A stretch of 64,000 nt of DNA, from assembly GCA_017499595.2 (NCBI GenBank), contig CM039008.1:1860001-1924000 (forward strand), in the 5' to 3' direction. This document shows positions 8,171 through 37,511 of the stretch, in pieces; position 1 is the first letter of the stretch, and every line of letters begins with the position of its first letter. Under the pieces are notes generated by a model, which saw only the letters and a list, made by a program, of their open reading frames with translations, did no database searches and was not told the origin of the DNA. The position numbers and the translations under genes were made by a program. The stretch comes from Psilocybe cubensis (Eukaryota).

Positions 8171-11100
8171 TGGACGATGTTGAAGAGGATATCGCTTTAT
8201 TAGAGAACCATCCGAGTTTGTAACATAGGTTCAGGGTCCAACGTGCAAGGGACCCATCAATTCTCATTTTTGTGTCACAATACTCACGCTCCTTAAACTC
8301 AAACAACCATGGAACATCACTTTCATAGCTCTACCTCGCAATCAGAATACCATACTAATCCTAAGAAATTGGAAATATCGCTATCTCATAAACTTGAAAA
8401 ACCATAACCAACCACGTTCATTTTCGATCGTCTCAGAATTTCAAACTAGCGCGGCTGATAACAGTCTTCATCTTGATAAACAATAATCAAAAGGACTATA
8501 ATCGTTCGACTCCATGAATATATCAGGTAAGATTTATATATCTGCAGGGTATAATAAATCTGACGTGTGGAATTTGCACGTTCTCTAGGTGAATGTCAAG
8601 GGGACGCGAAGCGTCTGACTGGGTCAAATCAAGGCAAACGAAGTATAACTGTGGCAATTTTCTCAGCGACAGGAGTTCGAGTTCCAAGCCATTCACATAA
8701 CCGTGAGGCTGAACCGTTTGCCAGCGTCCTTGCTCTCATTCGGTGTGCTGTCTCCCCAACAAACTTCTTTATTTCCCGATTCTCAAACATCCGTGATCAT
8801 TCTGTTCTAGACATGCCGGGCGAGCTCTCACAAACAGCACCCGCATAAAGTTTATCGTGGCGATACAAAAGACAGGGGTAACTCAAATCTGCCTTTGCTA
8901 CTACGACTGGCCGTATGCTCTCAGTATAAACTGTCCTGATCATATTAATATAACAGCGCGACACAAGCACGGAAACAACGTATTCACCGTTGTCTATGCT
9001 TCATTTGTCTGTGCTTCAGGTGAACGATGAACCCATATTGACGAGAAAGCTTTCATCGTGCTCTGCAGATCGACCTTCAAAGTTTCAAGTATGCGGCTCC
9101 TTTATACCTATCCAGTACCCGTATCTCTACAGGACAACTCTCAGATCAGTTCGTCTACCTACATATCTGCAGAACACGTACATATACTTCGTTGATTGTC
9201 TTCCCTGTAAGCTTCCTCCCTTGCCCCGCTTTAAATTTGCGGAAAACCTGAACGGAACGATGGCCTTTCTTTCCAGTTATGTCCAGCATGCTCAACGCGC
9301 ACAACGCCCAAGTTGTCCCTTTTACCCTCGATTATTACGTTTGGTATCTTCAGCGCCTCCGATTCATATGTCGATCTTTTATTCCTCATTCGTTTTTCTC
9401 AGGCCCTTTGCTACTTTCCGATCTTTCACTGTTGAGATGAAAAGATGGTGAGTAATGTTCGGGGTGTAGTAGGGGAGTGGGATGGTACTTTACTAAGGTA
9501 ATGGCATCCCAATGATCCCATCCAGCTTAACTCCAGTAATTTATTCGTACTTCCCCGGTTGGTAGCGTCACAAATGCGGCTACATACCCTGCTTACTGAA
9601 CATAGTTTTTTTCTAACCCTCTTATCTGTTGTCCTGAGTAAAGCATGGTAACGAGGAATGCAGAGCAAAAGATACTAGGCCACATCAGCTCTACATCTTG
9701 ATATTTTTTTAAAGATATGTGGTATAGAATCCACTGTCAAAGAGCCGAGTTGTAGCTTGAGTCGAGCTAAGGCTGGCTGAAATAGACCTCAGTCCCACGG
9801 ACTCCCTTACTTTGGAATGAATTCGTGCAAAGAATGCTGTTGCAGTACCTATCGTATACCGGTATTTATTTCCTATTTGAGAATTCCTTCCCACCAAGTG
9901 TCTCTCATACGTTTATAGTTGGCCGTAAACTGATTCCGAAGGGCAGTTTACGGTGATTCAAGCAAAAGTACACAGTCTCTTGAATTCGTAGGTATGGAAG
10001 ATTTGGAAGACGAATTTTGTCTTCCTGAAATGTTCCATCTAAGCGTACACCTTTCTTGTACTGTAATTATGGGGAGGAAAATAGCATGCATTTATCCTTA
10101 ACCTCACGCCGTTGGAGTGCAGCAATGATTAAAGTCTCAAAAATCACGTTCTGAGGTTCGAGGATTAATCGGAAATTAAGGCATGTAGGGTGCTACGTTC
10201 GTTGTGCTCAGTCTCTATTAACCGCTTCTTGCTACTTGAATTTCCAATCAGTAGCCACGAAAGAGGTCATAAGAAATGTCAAATGTGCTTCACTCCGCAA
10301 CGTTGATAACGATTGGCCGAGAAATTAAAGAGGAACAACCCAAAACGGAATGATCATTTCGGGAGGCATGGGGAGATGGGCGTCTAACTAAACATAATTA
10401 GGCGCGCATCATTGCCATGGCATGTAACTTTCATTTGCAGTTACTTTCTGAGTAGAAAATTACACAGAAGTTAATAAGGAACAGTTAGTTGGAGTTATCT
10501 AGATTTATCTTTGACTGCCACTTTGAAAGCATTTAAACTTGATGTACAGGCTTACAGATCTTTTCAACAAATTTGGTAAAACCGTAACATAGCTAGTAGC
10601 CTAGTAGCTATGTAAACCAAATGTATGACTTAGATGTGTACGACATATGTATTGCATACCAACCTTACTTCGAACTGCTGAGGATGTCAGATATTTCTGC
10701 CTCGGAGTTCCCAGTCCAACATGAATCAATGTGATACATACAAAGTCATCCTCGGAGTTGCAAGGCCTTCCATACTGTTGTGCTGTAAGTCACTTCCCGA
10801 ACATATCCAAAAGTCTTTCCAGACAGCTTCTAGTTGACAGAAGTCAAAGTTCATGTGTTCGGGGTTGTCGGTTAACTAAAAGTGTACGTTTCTGGCATGA
10901 CGAGTACAAATGGCGGAGGGTTGTAACTTGAATACGATGCTAAGGATACAAGCTGTCACCGTACAATGTTATATAAGGCTAATACTATGCAGGCAGAGAC
11001 CTCGACGGAGATACCTAAGTCTCGGTATTGATATTGAATGTTTTGCCATTTTTATTATCACGGAAACTTCAACGTTCAACCGGAGATGTTGTAGCTGACA

Positions 11101-17428: not shown

Positions 17429-18911
17429 GATGGTGGTTTGGAGGAAAGAATGAAGGTTGTTTTCGTTCGATGAGATGGTCAATTATATTGGGCTCAGATT
17501 ACGGAGCGGGATGATGCAGTGATTATGTCAGCCTCTATGATCAAATGGTGACGAGGTTACTCCGAAATCGGTTTTGTCGGGAGGGTACACAGTTTACTCT
17601 GTTCAGGGGGAACGACAGATGTTAGGGGCCATGGAGAAATCGAAACTCTTCTGAGCGTGTTTGCGCAATATTCAGCCTTTATCTTCAGGGAAAAGAGATA
17701 CATACCTGGCCTCAGACACTGGCGAAGTACACAATACGCGCTTACAGCGCTGAAGGCATCCCGTGATGCAACGTGCTTGGCACCGATTTGTTGAGTAAGA
17801 ACGTTCGATAACCTCCCATAGAATCCCACAAACGCAGGTAGAAAGTTCCATATCTGTACCGATAATGCGACAATCTTGTCAAGGTGATGCCGGATACCAA
17901 GGCGCGCTGGTGTACTTCCCGGATCCGCTTACTTTAGCCCATGGGATGCCCTGAGATGCCCGATACTCTGACTGACCGGCTATAACAATGGCTTGTTAGA
18001 AACCTCAGTAGGTAAAGTTTGGTGGGATTTATTCCTGATGCGTATTCTGTGCCACGGCACAGCAATCTGGTTGAAATGTGAGTGAAGACCTCGTTAGGAA
18101 AGATTAATGATTAAACTCTTGAATTCCTCGAGAATAGAAAATAATTGCCAGCATAAGCTCCAATGAATGCGTCTAGGTGGCGATGATCTGAAAGCTACAG
18201 CAAGGAGTTCGCCTTGATGGTTGTAGTTTGACACTTCGTAAAGTGTCATATCGTTTCAAACTCAATGAGAAATAACCTCCAGAATAACCTGAATATACAA
18301 GTCCATTGGTTAGCAAATGAATAAATCCTTGATCCATATGACGTTTTGATTATCTTACAGGTTTAGTAGTCTTGCGGCAGACAGTCCTCCTGTTAGAAAT
18401 CGCGTTGTTATGGTACAGTATTGCCTACAAAAGTTCGTAATTGAAAGAGGTATTGGCCTGGGGAACGTTTCGGTCGGTAGCGTATAATGTTTTCTGCCTA
18501 CACTTTAAATTTTGAATCCAATAGTCTCAGTGATCGGGACATGTTTCATTTGACATGAATCAAAGGCAACACACCCACCTATTGACATACTGACAGAGCT
18601 TCAACTTGACTCAGGCCCAAAATCTCGCATGCGTCTAGAATGGCAGTAAACGGTGTTTACAATCGTTTATGGGATCATCCAGGCCAATAGCTGGCTGGTC
18701 CTAGTGTTTCCTTAAAAGAAAAAAGAACTGAATAAAATAGATAATGGGAGATTAGATTATTTCATACCTTCTCAGGAGTTTGCAGGAGAAGTATTTAGGC
18801 GCAATGCAAGCGCACTGGTGACTTGTCTTGGAACGCGTTCACGGAAAAGCCCGAATGAACCCAACGCGACACAGCGCGTGACTCGCGGTTTGACTGTATC
18901 CCAGCCGGATG

Positions 18912-19285
18912 TGTTAGACAGAAGAAAGTAATGTACTCAGTACGATGATGGAATCGACTCCGTTGTAGTGTATGCTACCTGTTAGACAGAAGAAAGTAAT
19001 GTACTATCTAATCGTGAGCATACTGTGTGAAGTAATAAGGGTGTAGGATAATAGTCCTCACCTCAGTACGATGATGGAATCGACTGAGGGAGGGGTTTTG
19101 TTTGTACGGTGTAGAAATACTGGAAAATTTGGGAGAACAAAAATATAAACAAACATTGGATGCAGTCGGTTGATCGAACTGCTTTTTATGGCAGGCGTTA
19201 TAGGCGCCTGCGATGCGCGTTACTGGACGCCAAGCGTCCTGCGCTTTTCGTGAGGGCACGCTTCGACTCACGCGTCCCTCCAACA
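18912..19285 (-). repeat. 3' LTR of the copia element
   Basis: Identical by eye to 36219-36592; ends TGTT...AACA. Confidence 0.97.
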
Positions 19286-19292
19286 CTCCTCC
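19286..19292 (-). promoter_or_regulatory. short polypurine tract (GGAGGAG) abutting the 3' LTR
   Basis: Plus-strand ctcctcc lies between the pol stop codon (19299) and the LTR. Confidence 0.65.
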
Positions 19293-19298
19293 GACGCG

Positions 19299-19613
19299 TT
19301 AGGCGGTATCGTTAGGCCGAACGAGTGGGTCGCTTGCGTCACAGAGTCTCATGGCGACACAATGTCTCCAGTGAGCGGTGCGGCCGAGAGGTTTTGTAAG
19401 GATGTCGGCAATATTCTCAGAGCTGGCCACATATTCGATGCGCACGTCACCATCCGCAACTTTCTCCCGTACGTAGTGCTCCCTCACGTCGATGTGTTTG
19501 ACTAGGGCAGTCCCGGAGTTGTTGTTGGCGATGTGGCGCGCGGCGTCGTTGTCTCCTCGTAGCACCAAGGGGCGTGGCACCGGAAAGCCCGTCTCCTCCA
19601 GCGAGGAGGCTAC
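19299..19613 (-). CDS. copia pol C-terminal RNase H fragment, separated by the KDZ insertion
   Basis: VASSLEETG...LRGDNDAA...KHIDVREHYVRE...NIADILTKPL, typical of the Ty1/copia RNase H end. Rejoins in frame with 31903-36006. Confidence 0.93.
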   Translation of the reverse strand, partial: VASSLEETGFPVPRPLVLRGDNDAARHIANNNSGTALVKHIDVREHYVREKVADGDVRIEYVASSENIADILTKPLGRTAHWRHCVAMRLCDASDPLVRPNDTA

Positions 19614-19699
19614 CCACATGACACCTGTAATTACCCTGCTTATATATAAAACCCTTGCACTGCAATAAAATGCTCCATACATGGCAGCAGGCACTTGCT

Positions 19700-20220
19700 G
19701 CATGGATAATCTATTATCCATTTACTTAGTCTGCCTATCAATTATCCATTCCGTTATCCAAGAGCCTTGTTATCCATTATCCATTCCCGTGTGCGCCATT
19801 AACAATTGTTTCTATCCATTGTCCGCCGTATCATCCAAAGGGTACATTATCCATAGCCCCGCTTCATGATCCAACAGCCGTTATCCATTTCTGTGCGCGC
19901 CATTAATAATCTATTCCATCCATTGTCCGCTGTATTATCCAAAGGGTACATTATCCATAGCCCCGCTTCATAATCCAACAGCCGTTATCCATGTCTGTGC
20001 ACCCCATTAATAATCGATTCCATCCATAGTCCGCCCTCTTATCCAAAGGGTATATTATCCATATACCCCTGAATTATCCAACTGCCCACTATCAATTTCC
20101 ATGCAAACCATTCATGACCCGCTCTATCCATCATCTGTATTCTTATCCATGGGTCATTTCCCCCTTTCATACCACGATATTCATTGCCCTGCGATTATCC
20201 AAGAGCCGTTTATCCACTCC
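19700..20220 (+). repeat. left subterminal array of the KDZ element (TTATCCA-like motifs; three ~104-bp tandem units)
   Basis: CCAAAGGGTAYATTATCCATA recurs at 19835, 19939 and 20043, with many TTATCCA/TCATCCA/CTATCCA motifs. Confidence 0.9.
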
Positions 20221-20440
20221 CCTGCGCCTTATTCAACACTATCTTCCAAGAAAACAATTACAATTCCAAGAAAACATACACTATAAATATACAGAATCAC
20301 TAAAAGGATGTCAAGATGTACAAGGTACGTTCTGTCTGCATCAGCTGGATGCGAGCGCAATAAAAAGCTCAAGAGAATTGAAAAAAACAGTCTGAATGTC
20401 CAAGATCACGTGTCAAAAACAAATGCCAGCGCATCACGCC

Positions 20441-23292
20441 TCAAGCCTTCGCTTTCTTTGTTCTTTTTTCCTTCCCAGTTTCCTCCGCCGCCTTCCTCTT
20501 GTTGTTCAGTTTCGCCTTTTGGAAGGTGTTGAAGGTGTTGAGTAGGTCACTTACTGCTAATTCCCAGAGACCATCCGAGGCTTGAGCCGAGTACCACCAC
20601 TTTAACCCAACCATCACTGTCAACAGCCCATTGGGTCCACCTTTCCGTAACGAAGCCATTGAATCTTTTGCCTTCGCAGTCTCGAACGACAACGGAAGGG
20701 AATTCGGGGTTTTGGTTTGACGCCACGCCGGCTGTATGGAGTTCCACCAGGTCATCCATGACTTCTGAAATTCGTCTTGACGGATAGCTGGGATAGCGGT
20801 GTATTTGCGGGATGAGGAAAGCCATTTCCCGAGGGCTGTTGGTCTGCCTTTCGCGGGGAGCCTCAACTGCAACGGTAATCAGTATCTTTATCTGCTTTTG
20901 TGCATGATCCGGGACTCACAGAACTCGTATCCATCTCAGCAATTTCCATTCTCTCGAAACTCTCCCATGCGCGCACACATTCCTGCCATTTTTCTACCTC
21001 GATATCTTTGAATAGATATTCACTCGCTGCCAACAGCCATGCTGTGGTCTGTGGAGCATCCTTCGAAGCTGCTGCCTTTCTGTTACGACTACGCGTTGCA
21101 CTGGCGTCCAAGTTCTCGCTTTTGTCTGGAGCCGCAGTCAAAGGTGCATGCATGCCACTCTCGGGAATAATTGGATCGTTTACTGCATGGTTGGATAGAA
21201 CTCCAGCTGAGTTTGTGGCGCTGAGCACTGGCGCTGACGTCTGGGCAGGGACTATGGTGTGAGGTGCTGAGATGGAATGGTTTGGGTCCAATAGCATCGG
21301 TGCGTTTGCCTGTCCTGCCATCATATCCTGACTTTGTAACATTTGGCCATGTAAACCAGGAAGCGTCACTGTGTTGTTTGTGTTGAGGGCAAGTGCGGTT
21401 CCCATCATGTTTGGATCCGCTGCGTACTGTTGCAGGGCCAGGTCAATTCTATCCCATTCCTCTTCTGAAAAGTTCAAGGTAAGTCCATCGCCCCTATTCG
21501 CATCACCCGCTTGTAGCCGCATCATATCCTGGCCTACAGCAGCTGTCAACTGGTCTATGTCTTGGCCACCAACTCCATCCGTCATAGAAATGGCAGCACC
21601 ATAAGGCAAGAACGCAGCAACTGGATTTGGGGCCACCTTGGCCTGTTGAGGTAGAGGATTGGCAGGCGGAAGGAAGTTTTGTGCCTCAATGGTAGCGTGG
21701 GTAGCACCATTTGTAGCTGGGTAACAAGGTGGGCTTGGACTTGCCACACTTTGAGTCGGTTGCACCTGAGCTGGTTGGACTGTGCTTTGTGTCATGACAG
21801 GAGCCTGAGCAAAGCCGATGGCCACCGCCGGCGCCGCTGTCATAGAGGCCATTGCAGTCTGTTGTGCGGCCTCAGGGGGAGTATGAGCTGCAGTTATGGT
21901 GTTTGGAATAGGGCCAGAAAGCTGAGCGGCACTTCCCATGTGAGCATTGGTTGATGAGATGGGTACTGATGCAGCTGTATAAGTTGGATGGAAGGGCACC
22001 TGATTGATAGCAATTGGAAGGCCAGAAAGCTGAGCGACACTGCCCATGTGAGCATGGGTTGATGAGGTGGGGACCAACGCAGCTGGGTCGGGCACCTGAT
22101 TGACAGCGATTGGAAGTGCATTGCTCTGAATCTCTGGTTGTGTAGTCACAGGGGGAGTTGTTTCCGACAAGACATTTTCTTGCCCTGCGTCGCCGGTTTC
22201 AACTTTGCTGGTACTGGCAACTTGGTTCTCTTCTGGCTTTGCCTTTGAGCTATTGAGAGTTTGTCGGTCGCGATCCTCTTGCGCTAAAGAAAATGGTTGA
22301 TTAGGTCACTATGTGTTAGAAATACAGATAAATTGCTCACAGAAAACATTGTATAAAAAAAGTCTGAACGGCGATAGCACATGTTGGTAAAAATGTTCAT
22401 TCGCAATAGAAAACAGTTGTTCATATTTGTCTCGACCGTTGTGGACAGCGACAGTACGAATTTTGCCTTGATCAGCAGGCTCAGGTCCTCCAGCAATTAC
22501 TGTGAAAACCCATCCGGTACGACTGCTCATTTCATCTATAAACGCTTGGATAGTTTCCGGCAATGTCAAGAGATTACTAACTTTGTATCAGTAAGACTTT
22601 AGCACAAAGAATAGATCACTTACATTGCGCATTCTTCTGGAGACATGACTTCCGGCATGTCAGGAATTTGTCCCTTCAGCTCCTTGAGCTTTGCCAACTC
22701 GGCACGAATTTCCGCCTTTACCTCATCAGACTCGTCATTCCAGGCCTCCCCGGTGCACTTGTTGATGATTGCAATTCGGTGACCTTCAGGATTGGTGCGG
22801 AGAGCCTCTATTACTCGTGGCCTAATGCGTTCATCATAATATTTCTTGGAATACAAATTTGTTTCCGAGAGAAGTCGGGGAGCGTTGTTGCCACCAATAA
22901 CAATGGTCGGACCTCGCCGATGTTGGGTGCCGGCCCCACGATTATTAAACCAATTAACAATTTGCTGTTACAAATATGACCTCGTCAAAGAAACTCATAC
23001 ACTAAGTATGAATTGTGCTTACGTTTTTCCGCAACTTAACCCATTCTGCATGAGAAAGTTCGGTTTTCGTTTGAGGCAAAACAACAGGTGCATTTTTCTT
23101 TTTCTTCTTCTTTTTTGGAACAGTCATTGGTCTAACTTCAGCCTCAGGCGTAGGCCACAAGACAAAAAATTCTTGGTATATTTTTGTCCAAAAATTGGGG
23201 GTGGTTTTTGTACGCTGGGACGCCTGGAACTCAGGAACCTTGGCGGATAGAAACTCAATTTGTTCGGGAGTCCCCCACGGTAGCGGCGGCAT
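20441..23292 (-). CDS. KDZ cargo gene 1: multi-exon protein with homeodomain-like and HMG-box-like segments, a low-complexity linker and a Trp-rich C-terminal domain
   Basis: Exons WGTPEQIEFL..FFVLWP / QIVNWFNNRG / YSKKYYDERIRP..CTGEAWNDESDEVK / TGWVFTVIAGGPEP / RPTALGKW..WMTWWNSIQPAWR..KGGPNGLLTVMVGLKWW. Domain calls are by resemblance only. Confidence 0.7.
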
Positions 23293-23594
23293 TTTGATCT
23301 AAGTATAGCAGTTGTTCTAAGAATAAATGAATGTCAAATTGTTTGTTTTTTAAGCGCACGCAAACTCACCTCAAATAACAGAGTTAGACTTAAGGTCCAG
23401 AAAATGCAGTAAGACCTTCTAGCTACTTCTTCGATTTGACGGCAATAGCTTGCTTACATTATTGAGAGATTCACCGCAATTTACCGTGTAACTGTACAGT
23501 TGCTGATGCTTCTTTGGACTCTGCATATAAAGATGCTCCTATCTGCCGCAATCTTATCCTTAACTCCCTACTCGCAAAAAAAACCTCTCACAAA

Positions 23595-24664
23595 ATGGCT
23601 CAACAAAGTACACCTCCCCCAACTCTCCCTAATTCTACCGTCCCTCCCTCTACCGCCCCTGCAAGCCGTATAATGTCTACCCGTGTTGGCGACGTTATCA
23701 ATCTCCTTCTTGCACTAAACAATGCTGGTACGTGCCCATTTTTGAGTTTCATGTTAATTTCAACTTGTTTACATTTAATCAGGATTAGAAGTTGTTCGTA
23801 CACCCGATGGCGTTGATCATGCTTCAGGGTTGGAAAACCTTGCCATGGGGGAGCTTATCTTGATTCTCCAAATCATGGGCATTCATGTCAAGGGTAATCG
23901 CGCTACTGCTGCACCCCCTCCTCCTTCTGATAGTAAGTCATCTTCGACTCCCTTTAACCTAATGTTTTATTTAATTGGACTGTAGGCCGTGATCCCTTGG
24001 TCCAAGAGATTGAACAGATGGTTATTTCATCTGCTCGTCGTCAGGCTATTAATCTTTTCTTTAGGCTTACCAATGGGCCGTTGAGTAAGTGAACACTGTT
24101 CATACTATCATGCTCAGCACAATCTAATTAATTTTAGCCGTCCCACCTGTCATTCTTGAAGAGTTATCATCAACTGTGGCTCCCCCTCCTTCGTCTGTTG
24201 AACCACAGGCCACCGTCACTGATCCTGCCCTACTTCCTCCAAAGTCCCAGTCTGCCTCCGACACTGTCATGCCCAAAGGCTTTGTGTGCATGTCCTGCAA
24301 CACGTATAACCCTATTCGCCCATCTGAAAAGCCAGTCTACGTTGTGTTTTGTGGTACAGATGTGGGGGTCTTTGACCATTGGTATGTTCCACATTCTTTT
24401 GAGATTGCATTTTGCTCAATTTAACACATATTTAACAGGAAAGATGCTCAGAGCCTTGTTTCTGGCATATCTCATGCTTGCCATTGTCGTTATAATAGTC
24501 GCGAGGAGGGTGAGAGGGCGTTCCAAGCTGCTTTGACTGCCGGAAAGGTTCGCATACTTGGTAATCCTATTGCTGCGCCTGGAGCTATTGTCTCTTCCTT
24601 GTCCCCAAATGCCCCCAATGGCACCTCTGGCTCCTCCAGCGAGGCCTCTAGTAGCTCGGATTAA
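23595..24664 (+). CDS. KDZ cargo gene 2: protein with an RNase H1 N-terminal (hybrid-binding / Cauli_VI-like) domain and no catalytic domain
   Basis: Spliced C-terminus reads CMSC..PVYVVFCGTDVGVFDHW/KDAQSLVSGISHACHCRYNSREEGERAF, matching the pattern YxVxxGxxxGVxxxW...VxG....F/YxSxEEA. TAA at 24662-24664. Confidence 0.72.
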
Positions 24665-25014
24665 TGAGTAGACTTACTCCACCCTCGGGGTTTTTCCTTT
24701 TCCGTTCAATATCGTGTAGACAGCACCATTTGTCACCGCGTATGAAAAGTTTCCCCGCACTTTTAGTAGCACCACTTGTATCTCTTGTACATCTCATTTT
24801 GATTTCTTGTCTGTGTTTCCGAATATATCTTGAACTTGTGCTGCTCTCCATATCCGTGTGAATGAAATCTTCAATAATCAAATAAAATATTATTGAATGT
24901 CTCTTTTGTAGAGTCATTATATTATGCCATGTACCCCCATGCACCGTAGCTTCAATGTCGAACGATATACAATGATGTTTGTACTATATTAAAAGTCCAA
25001 TAGAAGTAATAACC

Positions 25015-25708
25015 CTATTGCGAAACCTTTTGAAATTCAAAGGATTTAGCATTGTAGTTGCGTTCAACGAATTCAAGGTCTTCCATTGCAGTCAATTCAA
25101 TCTCTTGCAACCAAGATTGTGTCTTCTCTAGCAGTTTTGCAAGAGCGACTGTCTTATTCCACTCTGGGCCAACTCCTGAACACATATATATATGGTTTTT
25201 ATATCGGGAAATTGGCCCAAGAAAGTGCTCTATCTTGTCAACCGATTCCGATAATTCGTGCATGTCTTGATTGCTGATAAACTGGAGGCAGATTGCCTCA
25301 GTATGTGCAATAGGATCCGATTTGATAAAGGTGTTGAAGCGCCGGTAGACTCGAAGAACTTCGTCCAACCAAGTGGCCGCCGGTGGCTTTGACTTGGAGA
25401 CAGGCTCTTGTTCAACAGCCTGTGCTTTACGTGCCGTTTCAATTCTAGAAATGAAGATTAATTCAATCTATAGAGATTATGCACATTCATAATCAGCAGG
25501 AATACCTTTTTTGTTGGATGCGAGCATATTTTCTTCTGCGACGTCGGTTTATGCTATCCTTGCATCTAAAAAACATTATAAAACATGTTTGTAACCAGAT
25601 TTATGGGAGGAAAACAACTGAATGCTACTTCTCATAATATTTCTTGCTCTTCTGCCTATTTGCGGCAAGTTTCTCAGCTTCAGAAAAATACTTGCGCTGT
25701 CGTCCCAT
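25015..25708 (-). CDS. KDZ cargo gene 3: basic N-terminus plus helical domain, function unknown, 3 exons
   Basis: MGRQRKYFSEAEKLAANRQKSKKYYEK / KDSINRRRRRKYARIQQK / ...WLDEVLRVYRRF...GVGPEWNK..., joined by GT-AG introns. Confidence 0.6.
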
Positions 25709-26288
25709 TGGTAAAGGTGAAAGCCAGGTAGCGATTTATTAGAAACTTTGCATTACTTACACGCCATTTCAGGGCTTCGTCTGACTTTTTTAACTACCAG
25801 GTAAACCCCCCCTCCAAAGGGTACCAATTGAAACATTGAATTAATCTACACTCAACTCTCGTCATCCAGAGCTTTACAACCATCTGTGCCGATGTTCTAT
25901 GGTTTTTGAACTCTGCAAGATAAGTTTTCAGGCTATGTCTAGACTGGGATTGAAAATGTAAAATAATAATAGAAGACCTTACCGTCATCCATTTGTTCGT
26001 TGGCTATCAATGGCTGGCAGCACCCTAATGTCAACCTTCAGCTTCATTATCCATTTACTAGTCCTTTATTGATTGGGACTTACTTTACCGTCATCCATTC
26101 ATTCAATTGTTATCCATGAGTTGTTTGCAACACTCTTGTCCTCGTTGTCCATTTCCTTGCCTGTTATTGATCAATTATTTTTGCTGACTCGCTGCTTATA
26201 AGTTGGGATGAACGCCACAAAACTCATCTGCATCACCTTTGACCTGCCCATAGACACCACTATCGCGTTTATCAGCAACTCACAACCA

Positions 26289-26817
26289 ATGGCCAAGGTT
26301 AAGCAAAGACGCCGTCGTACAGATAATTTCAAAGGTCCATCGGTGAGTAGACTTGAGCCTGATTGTTATAAAATGTGATCATTTTTACTAAATTGTCGTT
26401 CAAATTTGTAGGCAGTCACAATAGAGCCCGGCATTAGACCAGTTACATTGGATACGAAGTCCAAACAAGACAAATTTCTCGCCGATGCTGGCCCATATTA
26501 TCGCCAGGCCAAGTCTAAGGGAGAAAAGGAAGAGTTTCTTCACGAAATCAGCCAACTTTGGTTTAGAATTTGGCCGGAGGATCCGTTGAATACGGCAGAC
26601 ATTGATTTTGCACGTCACAGACAAAAGAATATTATGAAGGTGAAAGTTGTGTTTATATTTTTGTATGCCGCTAACTAACGTCTATATGTTACAGAAAATC
26701 AGAACAAGGCTGTTACTCCTCGGTGCCTTTGGGATTGTGGAAGGAGATACGTTGTGGAGGGACTTTATTGCTGCCAAAATGCACGAGCTCCATCCTGACA
26801 AGCTACCCTCTGTCTGA
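26289..26817 (+). CDS. KDZ cargo gene 4: small protein resembling the N-terminal domain of cargo gene 1, 3 exons
   Basis: MAKVKQRRRR.. / QDKFLADAGPYYRQAK..EFLHEISQLWFRIWP / KIRTRLLLLG..PSV*, with canonical introns. Confidence 0.55.
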
Positions 26818-26892
26818 TCTAGCCACTGTTTTGTTCGGCTTAATGTACCTACTACATAGTGGTCCAGATTTTAAATTTGCACAAATTATACT

Positions 26893-29800
26893 CTAGTGAC
26901 ACTCAACCATTTTGTATGCATTACGGCCTTCTGACATGGTCGTCAACTTCTCTGTTACACCATCCCATTGTTTCGCACAACGGTCACCTATATCACGTCG
27001 TATATCTGCCTGTTTCTTTGCATAAGCAATCTTACCAGAATTGATAGCTTGTGCATCTCGGTTAGGTACATCCGTCGAGTCGATGATATCCTGTGCACGA
27101 GAATCCCACTGAGCGGCTTGCCAAGCAAAAAAAGCAATAACACGGCGCATCTCCTCTGCTAATAATACACACTCCTCTTGCCAGCGATGTGCGCGTGCAC
27201 GGGCTTTGCACCATTCGATACGAAGAGCTGGACACTAGCATTTGTTTGCATTCAATTAGGTAAGGTAAAGACAACACACCTGCCTGTGTACACTTTTCGG
27301 CGTCTTCGCCCATACCGTGTACCTTCCATATCCAGGACAGTTTCTTGCGGCCTTCACTTCCAGAGTCGTCCATAGAGCTCAGTCCTCTAACATCAGTGTC
27401 CAGCAGTGGACGAAGGATATCACGCCACGTGTAGTATACCGTTGGCGTTGAAAGCAAATCAAGAGCTTGATACGCAACATTGTATCGCGCTGTTGCAAAT
27501 TTAATCTTTTCTTCAACAGCTGCGAGCAACGTCAAGCTTCTTGTCTGCATACGCTGTCCTCGTGAGTGTCGCTTTTTTGAGTTTAGCATATGTGAGCGAA
27601 GGAGTAAGAAAGCACGGAGGTTGTTGAGGCAATCTTCAGCCTGGGCATATCGGTACTGCGATTCGCATTTTAGCAATATGTGGGATGAAAATCGGATGGT
27701 TTCTGTGTTGTAGGAAGGCAAATATAGCTTGATATCCTGTACCGCTACTGGTGTCTCAGCCTGCAAGTTTTCGCGCGCACGCAGAGCTGCAACTGCAGGC
27801 ATATAAAGGTGCTGTATATTTATCCAAGCATCAATGCGTCGTTTTAATGAGTTTGATCGTTCGAGAATTTTAGTCTGTTGGATGTTCGTAGAATGGGCTC
27901 CAAGTTTGGAGATGTCAAGCGCAAGTCGTGCTCTAGTCTTGTTTGTAACCATGTAAAAAATAGCCTATAAACGACGTACTGTGATTCCTCAAGCTGTAAG
28001 CCCTGTGATATCAAGACACTCGGAGTTACTTCCTCATGTAAAGTAGTCATCTCTCCGCGTTTTAATGCATCTGAGTCCTCACGAGCTAATTGAAGACGAA
28101 CATCGGATTCCTTGACAGAACCTAGCAATGCACCATAAACAATAGAACAAGAATCAGAAAAATACACGTACTATTCTTCGGAATCACATAGGGATTCGGT
28201 TGACTGGAGTCCTTTTCCCATGTCAAACACATCTGGGTCCATTCCGACGTCGATTCTTCTGGCAATGCAGCGTCAAACTCAATGAACGCCTCGACCTGTT
28301 CTTGTCGCTCTTGAATAGCTTCCTTCGCTTTCCGTAAAAATGTTTCAACTAAAGTGCTTGTCAATATATGTGCATAGATTGCAGAATATTACGACGTACC
28401 AATCGTGATAATTTTTCGCCAGTTATAATCTCCAAAATGGTCATCCAATGTGTCGTTCCGAGACCCTGGCCCCATTTCCTTTGTGCTGCTGGCTATACCG
28501 TTTGCCGTTGCCCATCCTCTCTCTGGTGCCTCCCCATCTGTGCGCCCAACTCCCGGAGTATAGTTGAAAGAGAAAGACGTTTGGCATTTCTGAATATGAG
28601 CAGCAAGGTGGAATTTTGGTACGAGGTAGACAATGGAGAGATTTGATGGATCGGAGAGCACATTCTTAGGATATAATTGGCACCTTTTCATGAGATTGAT
28701 CCACCATTGGCAGGCAATGTCGTAGGAGACAACAAGACGGAGTAAAAGTGTGGCTGCGATTGTTGATAAGAAGAAATAATCCATATTAACGTATCTACGG
28801 CATCATGTGAGTCATGTTGACATGCAAGCATGTGACTGAAGACCTTACCTTTCACCCTTTTGTAAGTCTCCTACTGCCACGGGTCGCTTCATGTCGTGTC
28901 GACTACATTCGGCTGTACCAAGTCCACTTGCTGCTGTCCCATGTCCACCTCGTGAGTTAGCCGATTTGATAGCATCGTGGTTATTGCATGAGCTCTTTTC
29001 ATCTGCAACTTGACCATCGTAGTTTGCCAAGTAGTTTTTGAATTTGCAACTCTCAACCATATAGGCATATCCATGATTAAGCCCAGGGTCTCGCTCATCT
29101 GTAGATACGTTCATTCGCTTCAAACGAAAGTTGGCATCAATAGCTATAAAAAGAGAATAAAGCCATCTATTTTTGGACGTGACAATCAGACCCAATTGCC
29201 AGTGGACAACACCAACGAGTAAAAATTGGTACGTACTGTTCTGATTCTGGCCTCTCCTTCCAATTGTCGGGTAGATTGATGCCCGGGTGGGGACATGCAG
29301 GACATAGAACAGCACATTCACCCTCTTTAGTCCCATTAACACCGGTCTCAGAGTGACCTCGACCCATCCGTTTGAGGAGACGTACATGACGCCACTCACG
29401 TATGATCCTCAAGAAGACAGGATATCTGTCCTACATATTGAATATTAAAGATAGCAGGATAATAGAAGAAATGGAAGAGCTCACTGGTGGTGCCTTTGTG
29501 CCGGTGTTGTCTGTCAACCGTGATAATGTAGAGTAATACTCGTATCCCGAGACCTTCGAGTTAAATGAAAGGAGCTGAAAGTGTTCCAGCACATCAAATG
29601 TAGCCGCTGTTTTGGGATCGCCTACTGTAGAAGGAAATAAGCGGGCGCGAAGAAGTTGGATGGGCTTGGATGGTGCAGAAGGGCACCCGCAGTAGTCTAA
29701 GGCAATTTCATGGATTCCTGTACGCGCAATGACCACAAATTCGTCGTTGAAAGCTACCATTGGTATAGGACAGTCATCATGTCCCAGCTGCACTCGCATT

Positions 29801-30593
29801 CCAAGTTTCTTGAGGCTGGTCCTGCGAAAGTAATGTCCAGTCCAGACCTGCAAATTTGTCAATAATTCAGTATCATCATAGCCAACCCCACTCGCCTCGA
29901 TTCTATGAAATGGGTTGACCGAATGAGACCGGAGAACACAAGCGAGACACAACAGAGATCCGCTCCAACAGTCTTTGCAGCGAAACGCGCCTGCTTCGAG
30001 GTCCGAAATACACCCAATTTCAGAGCATTTCTGGAGATTTGCCTGCCCACCAATACCCTCCAGCCGGAGAAACTCTTCAACGTAGGTGTCAATATGCGGA
30101 GTCCAGAAGTGGATGGGATGTGTCTAATCGAATATGTGAGTGGTAGGTGCTGAAACACACATCTATTAGAGCAGGAAACTGTACGTACCGATTGTGTTTT
30201 TCGTTTTTTCTGTGGAACCTCTTCTTCAGGATCAGCTTGAACCTTATCTCCAGTCTTCAAGTTTGGCTTGAGATAATTCTTTAGCCCCAATGCCTCCAAT
30301 TCGCATTCTGCCATTTCTTCCAACTCAAGATCACCATCAAAAATCCTATACGGAGATTCTTCGCTCAGCACCCAATCAAGTCGAGGAGTAGGCGATTCCA
30401 CAGAGCCTAGAGGAGGGGGTGTGGGAAGCATAGGCTGAATTCCTTGCGGCAGCGGCATCCGTATGGTATGGTGCGTGCGTCCATGGTATTCAGTGTGAAT
30501 GTCGCCAAACGATGCTGTTTTCGCGTCTCGTTCATCAGGAGAGATATATTCGTCATAATAAACCTTTTTCTTGCGATTCACTCGGCGTTTCAT
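26893..30593 (-). CDS. CxC2 cysteine cluster + KDZ transposase, about 10 exons, apparently intact
   Basis: CxC2: CKDC..CLAC..H..PFHRIE/VWTG..QLGH..C..GIH..YCGC..QLL..LFPST..P.TAATF. KDZ core: AIDANFRLKR, CSRHDM, GDLQKGERY.NMDY, SYDIACQW, VPKFHLAAH, GRTDGEAPERGW, MGPGSRNDTLDDH. Confidence 0.93.
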
Positions 30594-30719
30594 GTTGTAA
30601 GTTGAAAGAACCTGCGAGCTAAGTGTATACACAAAAGAGACAAGGAAGCTTTGAACAGAAACGTCATTTCCAAGGAGACTAGAAGCGGAAACAAGAGGAT
30701 GTATAACTCATACTGATAT

Positions 30720-31812
30720 GGATTATTAGCTCAGAGTGGTTGATGGATATTTTACAAGGAAATGGATAGACTTCAAACATTGATGGACAGTAAGGAAAGG
30801 TATCAATGACAGTGAATGATGGGAAATGTTACGGGGAACCAAATTAATAAGTGCCTGATCTTCACGGGTGACAAGCGGGATGGATTAACGGGAGGCCATG
30901 GATGACAAGGGCATTCAATAATCAACGTTGGTATGGATGGAGACTGCGCACTGCACGGGTGTCAAGAGTGATGGATAAGTAGAGGGGCAATGAATGATTA
31001 GGGCAATAAATGAGCGCGATGGATAATGAGAAGAGAAATGGATGTTGAGGGTGATGAATAATGAACGCACATATCGATAGGCGCCTGCACTACGCGGGTG
31101 TCAAGCCTGATGGATAATCAGAGAAATGGATGTCGAGGGCGATCAATAATGAATGTGGGAATGGATGAGGGGCAGCCTGTGCAATGGTGGAGGGCGATGG
31201 ATAATAAGAAAGGCAGTTGATGTCGAGGATGATGAATAATGAACATAGATATCGATAGGCGCCTGCACTGTGCGGGTGTCAAGCCTGATGGATAATCAGA
31301 AAGGCAATGGATGTCGAGGGATATCAATAATGAACGTACATATTGATAGGCACCTGCACTGCGCGGGTGTCAAGCGTGATGGATAATCAGAAGGGCAATG
31401 GATGTTGAGGGAGATCAGGCTGATGGATAATTATATGGGCAACGGATGACAAGGGCAATGAATAATGAACGTACATATCGATAGGCGCCTGCACTGCGCG
31501 GGTGTCAAGTGTGATGGATAATCGGAAGGGAAATGGATGTCAAGGGAGATCAGGCTGATGGATAATCATATGGGCAACGGATGACAAGGGCAATGGATAA
31601 TGAACGTACATATCGATAGGCGGGTGCACTGCGCGGATGTCCAGCGTGATGGATAATCAGAAGGGCAATGGATGTTGAGGCCCATGGATGACATACTAGT
31701 TATGGATTACGAAGGGGTATGAATGACAGCGTGGGTATTGAATAATGGCTCAGCAGTTTGGGGAATACTATGGATAAAGTTCTAATGTATCTATCATAAA
31801 GGCGTTGGATAA
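30720..31812 (-). repeat. right subterminal array of the KDZ element (TGGATAA motifs; tandem units in multiples of ~45 bp)
   Basis: GATAGGCGCCTGCACTGCGCGGGTGTCAAGC.TGATGGATAATC-like block at 31076, 31254, 31345, 31480 and 31615. The motif is the reverse complement of the left-array motif. Confidence 0.9.
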
Positions 31813-31902
31813 TTATTGATGGGGAATGCATTGCCGTGGCTCATATATGAGGTATGCGCAAGGTCTTCTGGAGGTTGATATATAAGAACGACTGCTACGC
31901 CT

Positions 31903-34900
31903 CCACATGAGGTGCTGAGTGCCTCGGGATTGCGCTACATACTCCGCTTCGGTCGTTGACGTGGCTACCGTATGCTGATACCGAGCACTCCATGAAGTGG
32001 GACCGCCGCCCTGCATAACGACATATCCCGAGATGGATCTCCGCTTCTCCTTGTCCGCGGCGTAGTCGGCGTCAACGTAGGCAATGGGCACGTATGACGA
32101 GTGTTCGGGCCCACCATAAGTGAGCCGGAAGTGGCGGGTGGCCTTTAGATAGTGCAGGACGTGGGTGAGTGCTTTCCAGTGTTCAGGGCCCGGGTTGGAC
32201 GAGAAACGAGAGAGACAGGCGACAGCGTACGATAGGTCAGGCCTGGACGCCATCTGTAGGTACATGACAGAGCCCAGAACCTCGCGGTATGGCTTGTCCT
32301 TCATGAAATGGTGCTCGTCTTCCGTGGAGGGGCCTTGGTTGCGTCTGAGGTCTAGTCCTTGAGGGAGCGGGGTGTACTTGGGGGAGCAGTCAGCAAAACC
32401 AAATCGGGAGAGCATTCTGTCAATGAATCCTTCTTGAGATATAGTGACTGTACCGGTGTTCTCGTCCCTTGCAATGTCTAGCCCGATGACGCTTCGTAGT
32501 TTGCCCAGATCCTTTAGCTCGAAATCCTTTCCCAGTTCCTTCACCGCTTCCTGATATCCCTCCTTGGTGGTGCTGAGTCCGGTGACGTCGTCTGTGTAGG
32601 TGCATGTAATAGTGTGTTCGCCGTCCACTACCCTTGCTCTTACAGATTGATCTGCCCGTGATTGGTAGTATCCCATGCTAGACATGGACTTGTTGAGGGT
32701 GTCAAACCAATTGCGGCCGCTATCTCCCACTCCGTAGAGGCTTTTGTCGAGTAGTGCAACAAGATCAAGCTCCTCCGATTCGTTGTCGGCAGAGTAGGTG
32801 GCATTGTCCACAATCTTGTGCACCTCTCCTCCATTGGGGACATATGCCACTAGTTCGTAGACGGGACCATTTGGGTTAGGGACAGAGACAGTCTCGCTGC
32901 ATCGCTTGTACCCACGGAGAGAGGAGACTTTGTAGCCGTCTGGTTGTTCCATTAGGATTGGGATCTGGTTTGGTGCATTGAGATAGGCGCTGGCATAGTC
33001 AGCCTGCCAGAAAAACATCCTCGTGGTTGTTCCGGCCACCAGAATTGTTCTCACTGACTCGTATCTGACGGACGCGGCTCGAACTTCATTGAAATGTACG
33101 CCGGGGATGAGTGTATGGCCAAGGGCAACCAGTCTTGCCTTTCTCTTAGCAAGGTTGCCATCGCTGGTGAGTTTGACGGTGTATTTCCAGCCAGCGCGCA
33201 TGATCCTTGCACCCTTGGGGCGTTCCACCAGTCGCCATACTTTCATCCGAGCCATCATCTCCATCTCTTTGTCCATTGGCTCACCCCACAGGTCAAGGCG
33301 TGTAGCGGCCTCCTTGAAGGAAAGCGGCGTCCACAGGTCATTATTGCCGTCGCCTATAGTGGCAGTGGACAGCGCCAGGTGTCCCGCATCGTTGGTGTCA
33401 TCACCGGGAGGTTTTGGGTTCAGGCGAGCAGATGAACGGGAGGCGGGTGGATATTTGATGCGTGGACGGGAGGTCTTCTCGCGGTTGTCGTGCTCTTCAG
33501 CCTCTAGGGCAACATTAGATGACCCAGCAGTCGCAGTAACCGTGCCATCCGCCGTTGGAGCCTTGGAGTCTGAGCTAGTCGGTGGAGGGGAAGTGGGTTG
33601 CGAGGCATCCTTGTTGGGGGTTCCGGGGTTGTCGTCGTCCGCGGGGAGGCGAGTGCTAATAATAGCCTGATCGCGGTTGGTGCTGCTGTCAAAGGAGGTG
33701 TCCACCTCTTCCTCTGGTGGCTCCTGGTCAGTCGTACGATGTGGTGTGCCCTCCTCAAATACTACATCCCGCGAAACAAATATGCGCCCGCTGTCGCGTT
33801 CCAGTAGACGATATTCACCTATTCCAGCATATCCAACCATGATACACTTTACCGACCTCGGCGCCAGTTTCCCATTGTTGATGGCATCGGGGATCTTGGC
33901 GTACGCCACACACCCAAATGGGCGTAAGTGGGATACATCCGGCTTGATGCCAAACCAAAGTTCGAATGGGGTAGTGTCGGGGTGGCGGGATGTTGGCTGC
34001 ATGTTAATAAGGTAGATAGCTGTGGCCGCAGCCTCCCCCCAATACGTCCCAGGAAGCTTCGCGTCGTGTAACATGGTTCGGACCCTGTCAAGGATGGTGC
34101 GGTGTCCGCGTTCAACCATACCGTTGGCAGCAGATGAATATGCGGGGATGAATTCGTGGGTTATGCCATGCTCGGATGTATATGATTCCCACTCCGAGTT
34201 CTTGAACTCCGTCCCATTGTCAGTGCGGACATAGACCAGTTTTCGCCCCGTCACGCGCTCACCACGTTTGTGGTATGTGGCAAGGCATTCAACGGTTGTC
34301 TCCATGGTCTTGTTCTCCAGGAAGAACCCCTCACGGTACTCTGACCCACAGTCAGCCGCCTGCAGCATATATTCCTTTCCTCCAGGTGTTCGCACAGTAG
34401 CTGGTCCCCATAAGTCCATCTCGGCACGTTTGTTGACCTCTGTTTCCGGTTCCACCATAGCGTCAAATGGTCGACGGGTTTGTTTACCAAATATGCAGTC
34501 TTCGCAACGTCCATCGCACTTTCCGTGTTCAATGTCAAGCCCCTTCACGATCTCCTTTGATGCCATGGTACGGATGGTGTCTTCAGCAACATGGCCAAGC
34601 CGCCTGTGCCATTGGGCGAGGTCCACGGGTCTGGTGAGGGATCGTGCGGATAGTGCCTTGGGGCAGACGGTATGTGAGAAGGTCAGCCTGAACATGTCCT
34701 CATTCCCCATCTCGTCTGACTCCATGACGGCGTTCCCTTCTGGCGTGATAAACGTGGCGCGGTTGTTTGCAAAGACAACCTGGTATCCCTGGCGCAGGAA
34801 TTTTCCGATGGAGACGAGGTTGTGTTGTAGATTTGGGGTGTGCAGGGCGTCGCGAAATATTATGTTGGCAAGTTTCCCATTGTATACGATCCATTTAGAT

Positions 34901-36006
34901 ACTGATCCAATACCAGCAATGAAGAACTCTTCGCCAGTGGCCGTTGCACCCGACTCGTTGGAGCATTGTATCGGGGTGTAGTCGGAGAAGTCTTCCCTAC
35001 GGGGGAAGAAGTGTGCACTTGCTGCAGAGTCGGCATACGTGACAAGGTTGCAGTCTGCGTCGGATTGTTGTGGGAGGTCTCCTTGGTGCCGGGTGGAAAA
35101 GGCATAGTATTTTGCAGGGTCGGAAATTGATGCGATGGCGCTTGCGGCTATGGGTTTTTGGACAGGTGTGGTGGTACTTGTGTTTTGCTTGTTGTTGTCC
35201 TTCCCACTCCTGTTCCCCCTCCACCAGTCCGGGTACTGGCCCTCCATCCCACCTCCTTCTCGGAAGCACTTGTCGGCAGTATGTCCAATGCGTCCGCACT
35301 TTGGGTTGGCGCACTTCAGATGGGGGTGCTTGACTTGGGCACGGGTTGACAGAGCTTGCGCTACAGGCGGGGTTGCAGGTTGCATGGACGTAATGAATTG
35401 TGCGTGTGCTATCAAACGTGCTATGACATCCGAAGAGTCCGTCTCTCCATGGAGGGAGCCCAGGAAGGGGAGCCATGATGCAGGCATGGATCGCATGACA
35501 ATCATGCGGAACTTAGCATCTTTGATTTCAGCGCCCTGTGAGTTTGCGTAGTTCCACGCTGTCCTGAGCTTGCTGATGTGTTCTTCCATGTTGGCCCCTT
35601 CCTTGTATTTGATGTCGTTCAGGGCATTCTCCGCGGTAATGCATCCAAGGTCGGTCTTCGCATCTTTGATACTGGCAATGGATTTGTAGGTTTCGGCGGC
35701 CGTACCGTCCAGTTTGACACCAAGACCAATCGCGTTTTTGACGTTTAAGGTGATCAGACCTTGGGTCCATCCGTCTCGTTGTTTCCACTCGTCGAGTGAT
35801 GGGTATTCCGAGCCCCAGTAGGCGGTGGGCGGCTGGGGCGGCTGCTTGGGGTCTGGCGGGCTTGGTTTTGGGATGGTGCCGTCGAGGTAGCCCAGGGTGC
35901 CGCGTTGGTTTGCTACAGCTCGGATTTTTGCTTTGAAGGCAATCCAGTTGGAGCCGTCATATTGTTCGGAGTCTGGGAGTATGAAGGGTGCGGCTGACGA
36001 GGACAT
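31903..36006 (-). CDS. copia Gag-Pol polyprotein (gag, zinc knuckle, protease, integrase, RT, N-part of RNase H)
   Basis: CANPKCGRIGHTADKC knuckle, DSAASAH protease, WHRRLGH..CEDC, DLWGP..RTDNGTEF..NGMVER integrase, KARLVA..KSLYG..YTDD RT, YVDADYA..TEAEY RNase H. Confidence 0.96.
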
Positions 36007-36206
36007 GATGGGTTTAGAGTCTGTTGGGGTTGTCTGTTTCAGTGGGATCGATCGGGGCTGTAATCGTCAGTTATGGACGAACAGTTCTTGGTCGGGTCTG
36101 TAATCGTCAAGTGGGGACGAACAGTCGGTGTCGCTATCAGCGAAAAATTTTCTTTGGTTCGGGTTTGAGTGGACTCTTGTAGTACTGAGCAAAGTCTTAG
36201 GCTACG

Positions 36207-36218
36207 GGGCTCATAACC
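36207..36218 (-). promoter_or_regulatory. primer-binding site GGTTATGAGCCC (half-tRNA-iMet type)
   Basis: Immediately follows the 5' LTR on the minus strand. Resembles the Ty5/copia PBS that pairs with the tRNA-iMet anticodon stem-loop. Confidence 0.85.
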
Positions 36219-36592
36219 TGTTAGACAGAAGAAAGTAATGTACTCAGTACGATGATGGAATCGACTCCGTTGTAGTGTATGCTACCTGTTAGACAGAAGA
36301 AAGTAATGTACTATCTAATCGTGAGCATACTGTGTGAAGTAATAAGGGTGTAGGATAATAGTCCTCACCTCAGTACGATGATGGAATCGACTGAGGGAGG
36401 GGTTTTGTTTGTACGGTGTAGAAATACTGGAAAATTTGGGAGAACAAAAATATAAACAAACATTGGATGCAGTCGGTTGATCGAACTGCTTTTTATGGCA
36501 GGCGTTATAGGCGCCTGCGATGCGCGTTACTGGACGCCAAGCGTCCTGCGCTTTTCGTGAGGGCACGCTTCGACTCACGCGTCCCTCCAACA
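36219..36592 (-). repeat. 5' LTR of the copia element
   Basis: Identical by eye to 18912-19285; flanked by the PBS and the TSD. Confidence 0.97.
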
Positions 36593-37511
36593 GGATGCCA
36601 CTGCACTTCTGTTTGCCATGCCACAATTTCGTTTCCTTGCGCTGGAATTTCGGATAGGTTTTCTGTGCTTTGATGGGGATAGGGTATCAGTACTTTGGCC
36701 AGTATTATGTGAGGGAATATGAAGGCATACGTCAACCATCGAAAAGAAGTAGTACTCGACGGCAGTAAGCTATTACATTCCATTATCCTTGACTTGTTGA
36801 TGAAGGCACATTCATTCAGCTGTCGATTATTGAAGATGATGACGCGGATCGCTGGATTGACGCTTCCCGGACCATAACTGTTACCATGTTGCGGGGGCCA
36901 TAGCATGGGATATTTGTTTTTTGAGGAGACAAGCGAGACGTTGACATGGGTCGGGAAAGGACCTCATTATCTTCATTATAGCATGCACATAGAGCATGAG
37001 GAGCAGAATCTAGGCAGTGTCTCAAAGAAGTAAGCGATCCCTTCCTTAATGTCCCCTGACTTTCTCAACGAATGTATCATATGTCTAGTTTTGGTTCCAT
37101 CAGAGATTTAGGGAAAATCTTATCGTACAATATGATGTGATATAATTTGTATAATATGCTATCGTTGCGGCTGGAAGTGGTGTAAGTATTATACCACGGA
37201 TGATAGTATACCATGAGGGTTGTAATGTGATGATATAGCCAATGTCATGTAGAGCCGGTCTGCCAAGACTTTATCGCCTCGGGTCGGTATTACAACAAAA
37301 CGATCATCTGTTGTAATCTATATGCACAATTCCATTGGATTACACCTACATTATGGACTCGTTGTCATAATGATATCTGGTACATCTACTTGCTACATTT
37401 CTGATTTGCTGTGATCGTTATACCACATTCTTACACGCGTTCTTAAGGGTAATTGAATAATTCACGTGCAAACAATTTATATTTCTGTAATCCAAAAACA
37501 ATCTACATAGC

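Follow-up and report, generated by a model that had tools for sequence, protein, structure and literature searches.

A candidate leader intron and an intron-free copy of its exon junction form a conserved module in the LTRs of a Psilocybe cubensis Copia retrotransposon

Retroelements pass through RNA, and an intron in the copied RNA should vanish after splicing, yet genes without introns are poorly expressed in mushrooms. A Copia element in Psilocybe cubensis raises the question of how an intron might nevertheless persist in such an element. Its long terminal repeats (LTRs) contain a short GT..AG segment that looks like a spliceosomal intron, and further downstream the two sequences flanking this segment are found again, exactly joined. 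We analysed the window around the element, a stretch of 64,000 nucleotides (contig CM039008.1, positions 1,860,001 to 1,924,000), and all coordinates below are those of the window unless stated otherwise. The main parts of the element are:

18912–36592, minus strand: Ty1/copia element including a nested foreign transposon, recognised by identical LTRs, the target site duplication CATCC and its Pfam domain order
36219–36592, minus strand: 5′ LTR, 374 nt
36206–36218, minus strand: primer-binding site (PBS) GGTTATGAGCCCC, 13 nt following the 5′ LTR, including the complement of a CAT anticodon loop
31891–36006, minus strand: Gag-Pol reading frame as far as the RNase H break
19622–31902, minus strand: nested KDZ-type transposon of 12,281 bp, outside the LTR feature, recognised by an 8-bp direct repeat and by KDZ and CxC2 domains
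19317–19664, minus strand: C-terminal remainder of Pol (RNase H end), located by tblastn with P0003, P0006 and P0008
19286–19292, minus strand: polypurine tract GGAGGAG, immediately preceding the 3′ LTR
18912–19285, minus strand: 3′ LTR, 374 nt, identical to the 5′ LTR

The element is a member of Ty1/copia by its domain order, its TG..CA LTRs with a 5-bp target site duplication, and its polypurine tract. A frame of 1417 amino acids at 31816–36066 has the Pfam order of Ty1/copia: Retrotran_gag_2 (residues 49–220), Pol_BBD (344–428), gag_pre-integrs (458–529), rve (542–645), SH3_retrovirus (705–774) and RVT_2 (1099–1234). The two LTRs, 374 nt each with TG..CA ends, are 100% identical, and the duplication CATCC flanks the element at 36593–36597 and 18907–18911. 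The closest named proteins are Copia polyproteins of Agaricales (Hypsizygus, Psilocybe, Tricholomella, Laccaria and Lentinula; 32–48% identity), and 82 of the 8000 candidates scored were protein relatives at E ≤ 1e-20. A scan of IMG/VR with Gag-Pol returned zero relatives, and Rfam gave zero matches on 35950–36650. The element reaches 17.7 kb solely through the KDZ-type insertion, which interrupts the Copia RNase H region and is bracketed by the direct repeat TCATGTGG at 31903–31910 and 19614–19621. Since the Copia LTRs are still identical, this insertion is very recent. It contains CxC2 and KDZ transposase domains (28848–30123) and tandem repeats of 135 nt (30894–31675) and 104 nt (19774–20085).

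The Copia insertion itself is polymorphic, with 16 empty-site reads in run X12 and both filled and empty alleles among the X6 contigs. Runs X14 and X15, which we guess to be RNA, gave one contig each on the flanking plus strand gene, starting at 36594 or 36638, and none on the LTR or the body of the Copia element. The element therefore adjoins the 5′ end of an oppositely oriented host gene that, if these contigs are indeed RNA, is expressed. Both contigs skip a 55-nt GT..AG intron at 36765–36819 in this gene. At 36211, 8 nt into the leader past the LTR, all 43 covering X12 reads differ from the window, with C in place of T.

On the minus strand, the end of the LTR is ordered as A, a 58-nt GT..AG segment, B, a spacer S, and then A and B exactly joined. 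In LTR coordinates, A is found at 201–224, the 58-nt segment at 225–282, B at 283–306, S at 307–326, and the second A and B at 327–350 and 351–374. In window coordinates (5′ LTR first, 3′ LTR second) the parts are:

36393–36400 and 19086–19093, minus strand: outer 5′ arm of a hairpin predicted by folding, 8 nt, just upstream of A1 and outside the duplicated segment
36369–36392 and 19062–19085, minus strand: A1, putative exon 1 with the inner hairpin, ending in CTGAG; the proposed transcription start is 36392
36311–36368 and 19004–19061, minus strand: candidate spliceosomal intron, 58 nt, GTGAGG..CTCAC..TAG, its signals kept in relatives
36287–36310 and 18980–19003, minus strand: B1, putative exon 2, 24 nt
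36267–36286 and 18960–18979, minus strand: spacer S, 20 nt, with a GGTA start and an A-rich end
36243–36266 and 18936–18959, minus strand: A2, intron-free copy of exon 1, predicted fold −5.4 kcal/mol (z −0.03)
36219–36242 and 18912–18935, minus strand: B2, copy of exon 2, contiguous with A2, and the terminus of the LTR

This layout had been described in an initial annotation, and our coordinates agree with it exactly in both LTRs (58-nt segment at 19004–19061 and 36311–36368, spacer of 20 nt). The signals it had read in the segment, a GTGAGG start, a TAG end and CTCAC, were confirmed, CTCAC lying 11 nt before the 3′ end, and the AG microhomology that it had pointed out at the junction is real and 2 nt long. 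Neither a poly(A) run after B2 nor a target duplication of its own around the A2-B2 copy was found. A2-B2 is part of the LTR and not a separate retrocopy. The LTR, including the 58 nt, has no other match in the 64-kb window, so the many intron copies in host genes that define an introner are not seen there.

Does the 58-nt segment behave as an intron? Plain GT..AG ends are found in 447 of the 127,884 segments of this length on both strands of the window, but the combination of GT[AG]AG, CTNAY and YAG in just three, two of which are the LTR copies. The size is typical for the organism, the intron of the flanking host gene skipped in the contigs guessed to be RNA being 55 nt long and also GT..AG.

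Relatives of the element provide a broader comparison. Metagenome contigs were scanned with the Gag portion; 94 stretches matched a pattern, and the scan yielded eight loci (L001–L008) whose Gag is 36–54% identical to that of the window. The relatives all come from metagenome contigs of unknown kind. L004 begins 2 nt before A2, showing the A2-B2-PBS end alone, and L008 is without the leader region. All six loci that include the region (L001, L002, L003, L005, L006 and the 3′ LTR of L007) have the order A1-intron-B1-S-A2-B2. Here the spacer is 15–21 nt long and starts with GGTA, and B2 adjoins the PBS in five 5′ LTRs, while at the 3′ LTR of L007 the target duplication comes next. L002 and L003 represent one lineage; together with the window there are seven sequences from six lineages, between which Gag is 35–68% identical (the figure for L006 is unreliable due to frameshifts). 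At the starts of L003 (1–130) and L006 (1–100), the 3′ end of Pol and a polypurine run precede the LTR, and the PBS and gag follow it. This arrangement could reflect tandem elements, circular forms or an assembly collapse of two LTRs.

All seven sequences have a GTNNG donor, CTNAY located 10–15 nt from the 3′ end and a TAG acceptor in a segment of 49–58 nt, against a background of 5–14 such segments per ~127,900. The homologous introns of the relatives are 49–54 nt long compared to 58 nt in the window. The donors are GTGAGG, GTGAGT or GTATGT, and the intron interiors are just 41–67% alike. As the signals are kept in seven out of seven sequences while the interiors have diverged, the splice signals are conserved and the rest drifts. 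In each sequence A2-B2 equals A1-B1 minus the GT..AG segment, exactly, which is indirect evidence for removal of the segment from RNA; variable deletions with other bounds, which the initial annotation had named as the pattern that would speak against splicing, are absent. On sequence grounds it is well supported that the LTR holds a spliceosomal leader intron of U2 type and a retro-copied exon junction. The initial annotation had proposed just this, attributing the fixation of the spliced copy to the element at hand; sequence and relatives agree with the first part, whereas the design is old and was not fixed by the window element. The module is an ancient, conserved LTR design common to the lineages, and no accident of one copy. 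A more distal splice, from the A1 donor to the AG ending A2, was rejected as the main route, the acceptor being GAG in all lineages.

Raw DNA reads of run X12 mapped to 35600–37000 (404 reads) contained no join skipping 58 nt or 128 nt, although this is a weak test, with about three LTR copies contributing. Summed over orientations, the depth was 70–76 in four bins of 36211–36398, the intron bin included, and 37–40 in the 5′ half of U3. Given the lack of skipping reads and an intron-bin depth equal to that of its neighbours, the copies at ≥90% likeness in X12 all seem to keep the layout. The R-U5 half (36219–36400) thus has approximately twice the depth of the U3 half (36446–36592), and it seems that a sister subfamily has R-U5 in common with the element, but not U3. 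Furthermore, an LTR relative that has diverged (record 7 of the X6 contigs; three X12 reads with six differences) matches A1 and the donor only.

The two copies of the exon junction evolve together. Within the seven sequences, A1B1 and A2B2 are 100, 100, 100, 97.8, 95.6, 97.4 and 100% identical (mean 98.7), whereas A-B is only 52–78% identical between lineages (mean 64.5, 94 pairs). The first bases of B, at the junction, vary between lineages, yet agree in both copies of each element, with a C/T difference in L003 as the single exception. For changes in these bases to reach both copies, a contiguous spliced A-B template would be needed. A template switch on unspliced RNA would delete the repeat unit and not convert it, because the junction bases have homology on one side only, whereas spliced A-B offers homology on both sides. 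We infer that the second copy has been re-copied repeatedly from spliced RNA, beyond one ancestral event.

RNA folding points to a hairpin at the 5′ splice site. In the window, adding the 8 nt upstream of A1 moves the predicted fold from −7.9 to −21.8 kcal/mol (z −4.56; none of 200 shuffles as good). Across the six lineages, A1 with the first 12 intron bases folds at −2.1 to −10.1 kcal/mol (z +1.5 to −1.9), and with the 8 upstream nucleotides at −14.1 to −22.4 kcal/mol (z −3.7 to −6.0, 0–1 of 200 shuffles equal) in all six. In the long stem the pairing takes in the end of the exon and positions +1 to +4 or +6 of the intron, and this hairpin of 13–14 bp is predicted to bury the 5′ splice site. 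The same A sequence in its A2 context folds at only −5.4 to −10.6 kcal/mol (z −0.03 to −2.2).

The upstream arm tracks the donor type, with ATAC paired to GTAT and CAC to GTG, and 88.5% of the cells in the hairpin alignment are paired compared to 28–40% with the partners slid. Covariation is weak, with only three pairs showing changes in both partners, a count reached in 54 of 500 shuffles, and most pairs are invariant. The duplicated segment starts exactly at A, within the 5′ arm of the long hairpin. A consensus fold of the whole leader contains an A1 hairpin, an A2 hairpin, a small PBS hairpin and nothing else, the small A2 hairpin lying 13–24 nt from the PBS in five of the six lineages. A as a stand-alone hairpin was tried and rejected, being weak (z −0.8 to −2.7), unfolded in L007 and without significant covariation.

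Where the RNA starts is predicted by the copy itself. Should A2-B2 be a cDNA made from the spliced leader, the RNA would begin where the copy has its 5′ edge, and transcription would start at the first base of A1. TATA-like motifs are found 25–40 nt upstream of A1 in all seven sequences (at −34 in the window), by a loose motif definition, with canonical TATA boxes in L001 and in L002/L003, and the CCTC context before A1 is conserved. A start at A2 was rejected, since it is before A1 only that these motifs and the CCTC context are found.

The 3′ end of the RNA is more speculative. S has TATATA-like and A-rich motifs, and our guess is that it may act as a poly(A) signal directing 3′ end formation within A2-B2. 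No copy of S was found elsewhere in the window, the best other match having five mismatches. The GGTA start of S is found in L001–L007 and in the window (36283–36286), and S resembles the PBS over the first three bases only. One idea is that a modified base at tRNA position 37 stops plus-strand strong-stop DNA after the three bases that S and PBS have in common. Alternatively, AG|GTA at the start of S may be a splice-donor-like motif.

The PBS has the complement of the CAT anticodon loop between runs of G and C, and the same PBS is found in the seven loci with a leader, L001–L007. [quoted passage not shown] No tRNA genes were found in the window or in the metagenome loci. Half-tRNA priming is known for copia and Ty5, according to the available parts of the sources (PMC5371799; bioRxiv 10.1101/2025.04.25.647736).

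The best explanation for these observations, which we favour tentatively and with somewhat less than even confidence, is a conserved module in the LTR of this Agaricales-type Ty1/copia lineage, consisting of hairpin exon A, a spliceosomal intron, exon B, S and an intron-free A-B abutting the PBS, combined with position-dependent splicing and a landing-pad transfer. Transcription would begin at the first base of A1, leaving the outer hairpin arm out of the RNA 5′ end. There the 5′ splice site would be exposed and the leader intron spliced. The 3′ LTR portion of this RNA would include the outer arm, and the hairpin would mask the splice site so that the intron is kept. The RNA would terminate downstream of S, inside A2-B2. 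Minus-strand cDNA primed at the PBS would carry A-B and pair with A2-B2 near the RNA 3′ end, downstream of the intron. Reverse transcriptase would next copy S, B1, the intron, A1 and U3, restoring the full LTR. The intron would be expressed as a leader intron and inherited like U3. The suggestion of the initial annotation that retention of the intron may depend on the tandem layout is compatible with the data. The full claim, that a retrotransposon keeps an intron through RNA by splicing at the 5′ end only, via a start-truncated hairpin, and rebuilds it each cycle from the 3′ LTR via an intron-free R-U5 pad, is possible but doubtful.

Symbolic bookkeeping of the strand transfers separates the routes. 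An unspliced leader regenerates the LTR trivially. Full-length cDNA of the spliced leader loses the intron when landing on A1, and gives three copies when landing on A2. A short A-B cDNA landing on A2-B2 reproduces the exact layout, with the second copy rewritten from spliced exons. We favour this last route as it is the only one that explains the matched evolution of the two copies. A-B can pair over 38–48 nt with A2-B2 compared to 24–29 nt with A1. Such a short cDNA would arise by early transfer or by switching between the repeats of the leader, and the model needs one of these, since full-length strong-stop cDNA of a proximally spliced leader is expected to give three-copy or intron-less LTRs and neither was seen.

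A reason for an intron-less Gag-Pol gene to retain a leader intron may lie in the host, because basidiomycetes generally need introns for mRNA accumulation or expression, as stated in the available parts of several reports (PMC3744415, PMC8379801, PMC4935854, PMC7017817).

Further points count against the model. It has no explanation for the conserved GGTA at the start of S. Furthermore, direct repeats can be lost, as the 5′ LTR of L007 (5672–5915 of that locus) shows, being short of one repeat unit compared to the complete 3′ LTR (10241–10545). The L007 LTRs are otherwise a pair, 92.7% identical, with the common target site duplication GTGGT. This loss could be a direct-repeat deletion in plus-strand synthesis or a later change; the same LTR also has G-to-A and C-to-T changes, one of which turns the donor GT into AT.

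That the intron is real and the second copy a relic is unlikely in our judgement, but of the alternatives it survives best. Spliced strong-stop cDNA would have been joined behind an unspliced LTR end in one ancestral aberrant strand transfer, playing no part in saving the intron; transcription would start upstream of the hairpin, leaving the genomic RNA normally unspliced, and occasional template switching would keep the copies alike. One event is enough to create the layout, and a hairpin over the splice site could leave most RNA unspliced at both ends. Recombination between direct repeats is a known feature of reverse transcription, and the 5′ LTR of L007 exemplifies the loss of a repeat. 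A neutral repeat should, however, often vanish, yet this one is kept in all six lineages despite Gag identity down to 35%. The agreement of both copies at the first B bases is a further difficulty, as a switch on unspliced RNA cannot transfer these bases without deleting the unit. Nor does an upstream start account for the boundary of the duplicate, which coincides exactly with the start of A within the hairpin arm.

Less probable still is that S-A2-B2 is kept for a job other than splicing, either as a poly(A) signal and R/U5 module or as a hairpin at a fixed distance from the PBS for tRNA priming or packaging, with its likeness to the exons reflecting origin only. This is consistent with the TATATA-like and A-rich motifs in S, with the position of the small A2 hairpin in five of six lineages, and with the twofold R-U5 depth in X12, R-U5 being apparently more conserved among subfamilies. 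A structural role, however, needs no near-identity of loops and junction bases with A1-B1, and the A2 hairpins are weak by their z-scores. Finally, a segment that is no intron at all, arising by duplication followed by slippage deletion at the AG present at both ends of the 58 nt, is extremely improbable, given how few window segments satisfy the strict intron pattern, the same GT..AG bounds, branch motif and size in seven related sequences that differ in the segment itself, and the unique spacer S, which plain tandem duplication leaves unexplained.

Position-dependent splicing with a landing-pad transfer, the reading we prefer, shares single elements with several known systems. Ty5 of yeasts and copia of Drosophila have in common with the window element the order Gag-PR-IN-RT-RH, TG..CA LTRs and a 5-bp target site duplication, as far as the available parts of the sources go (PMC5371799; bioRxiv 10.1101/2025.04.25.647736). 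Our literature search gave no report of an intron in the LTR, or of a duplicated exon junction, in these two elements.

In HTLV-1/BLV and the foamy viruses the major splice donor lies in R, the acceptors are located far downstream outside the LTR, and the genome is the unspliced RNA. Like the window element, these retroviruses have a 5′ splice site in an LTR-derived leader, with structure or position selecting which end's signal works. Their intron, however, extends beyond the LTR, and they are not known to have an intron-free copy.

Self-priming is mentioned for Tf1 (PMC5371799). As in our proposal, the extreme 5′ end of the RNA has a sequence partner beside the PBS that serves in reverse transcription. 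In Tf1 this partner is complementary and acts as a primer, whereas the partner proposed here directly repeats the spliced leader, and the PBS is of the tRNA type.

Splicing of BARE and copia RNA, in the accessible portion of that report, separates RNA roles of an LTR retrotransposon, as we propose; the intron is internal, however, and spliced RNA is not proposed there as a template regenerating the intron (PMC3735527). Introners, as described in the part of the source available, are transposable element sequences with working splice signals, copia LTRs among the examples, but they become introns of host genes, whereas the window intron sits in the element's own LTR (PMC12130899). In the main texts of the literature, supplements aside, we found no description of an LTR-contained intron with an intron-free duplicate, though mushroom transposable element catalogues might include such LTRs unremarked.

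The conserved layout probably lets the element splice like a host gene and yet pass its intron on. If true, the combination of a leader intron, a position-dependent splice-site mask and an intron-free landing copy would represent a new replication strategy, and would explain how elements remain expressible in intron-dependent hosts. It would also provide a natural test system for the rules of strand transfer and for structure-controlled splicing. In practical terms, the finding bears on the annotation of R, U5 and the poly(A) site in fungal Copia LTRs, and suggests that promoter and intron could serve as a compact expression cassette in Agaricomycetes.
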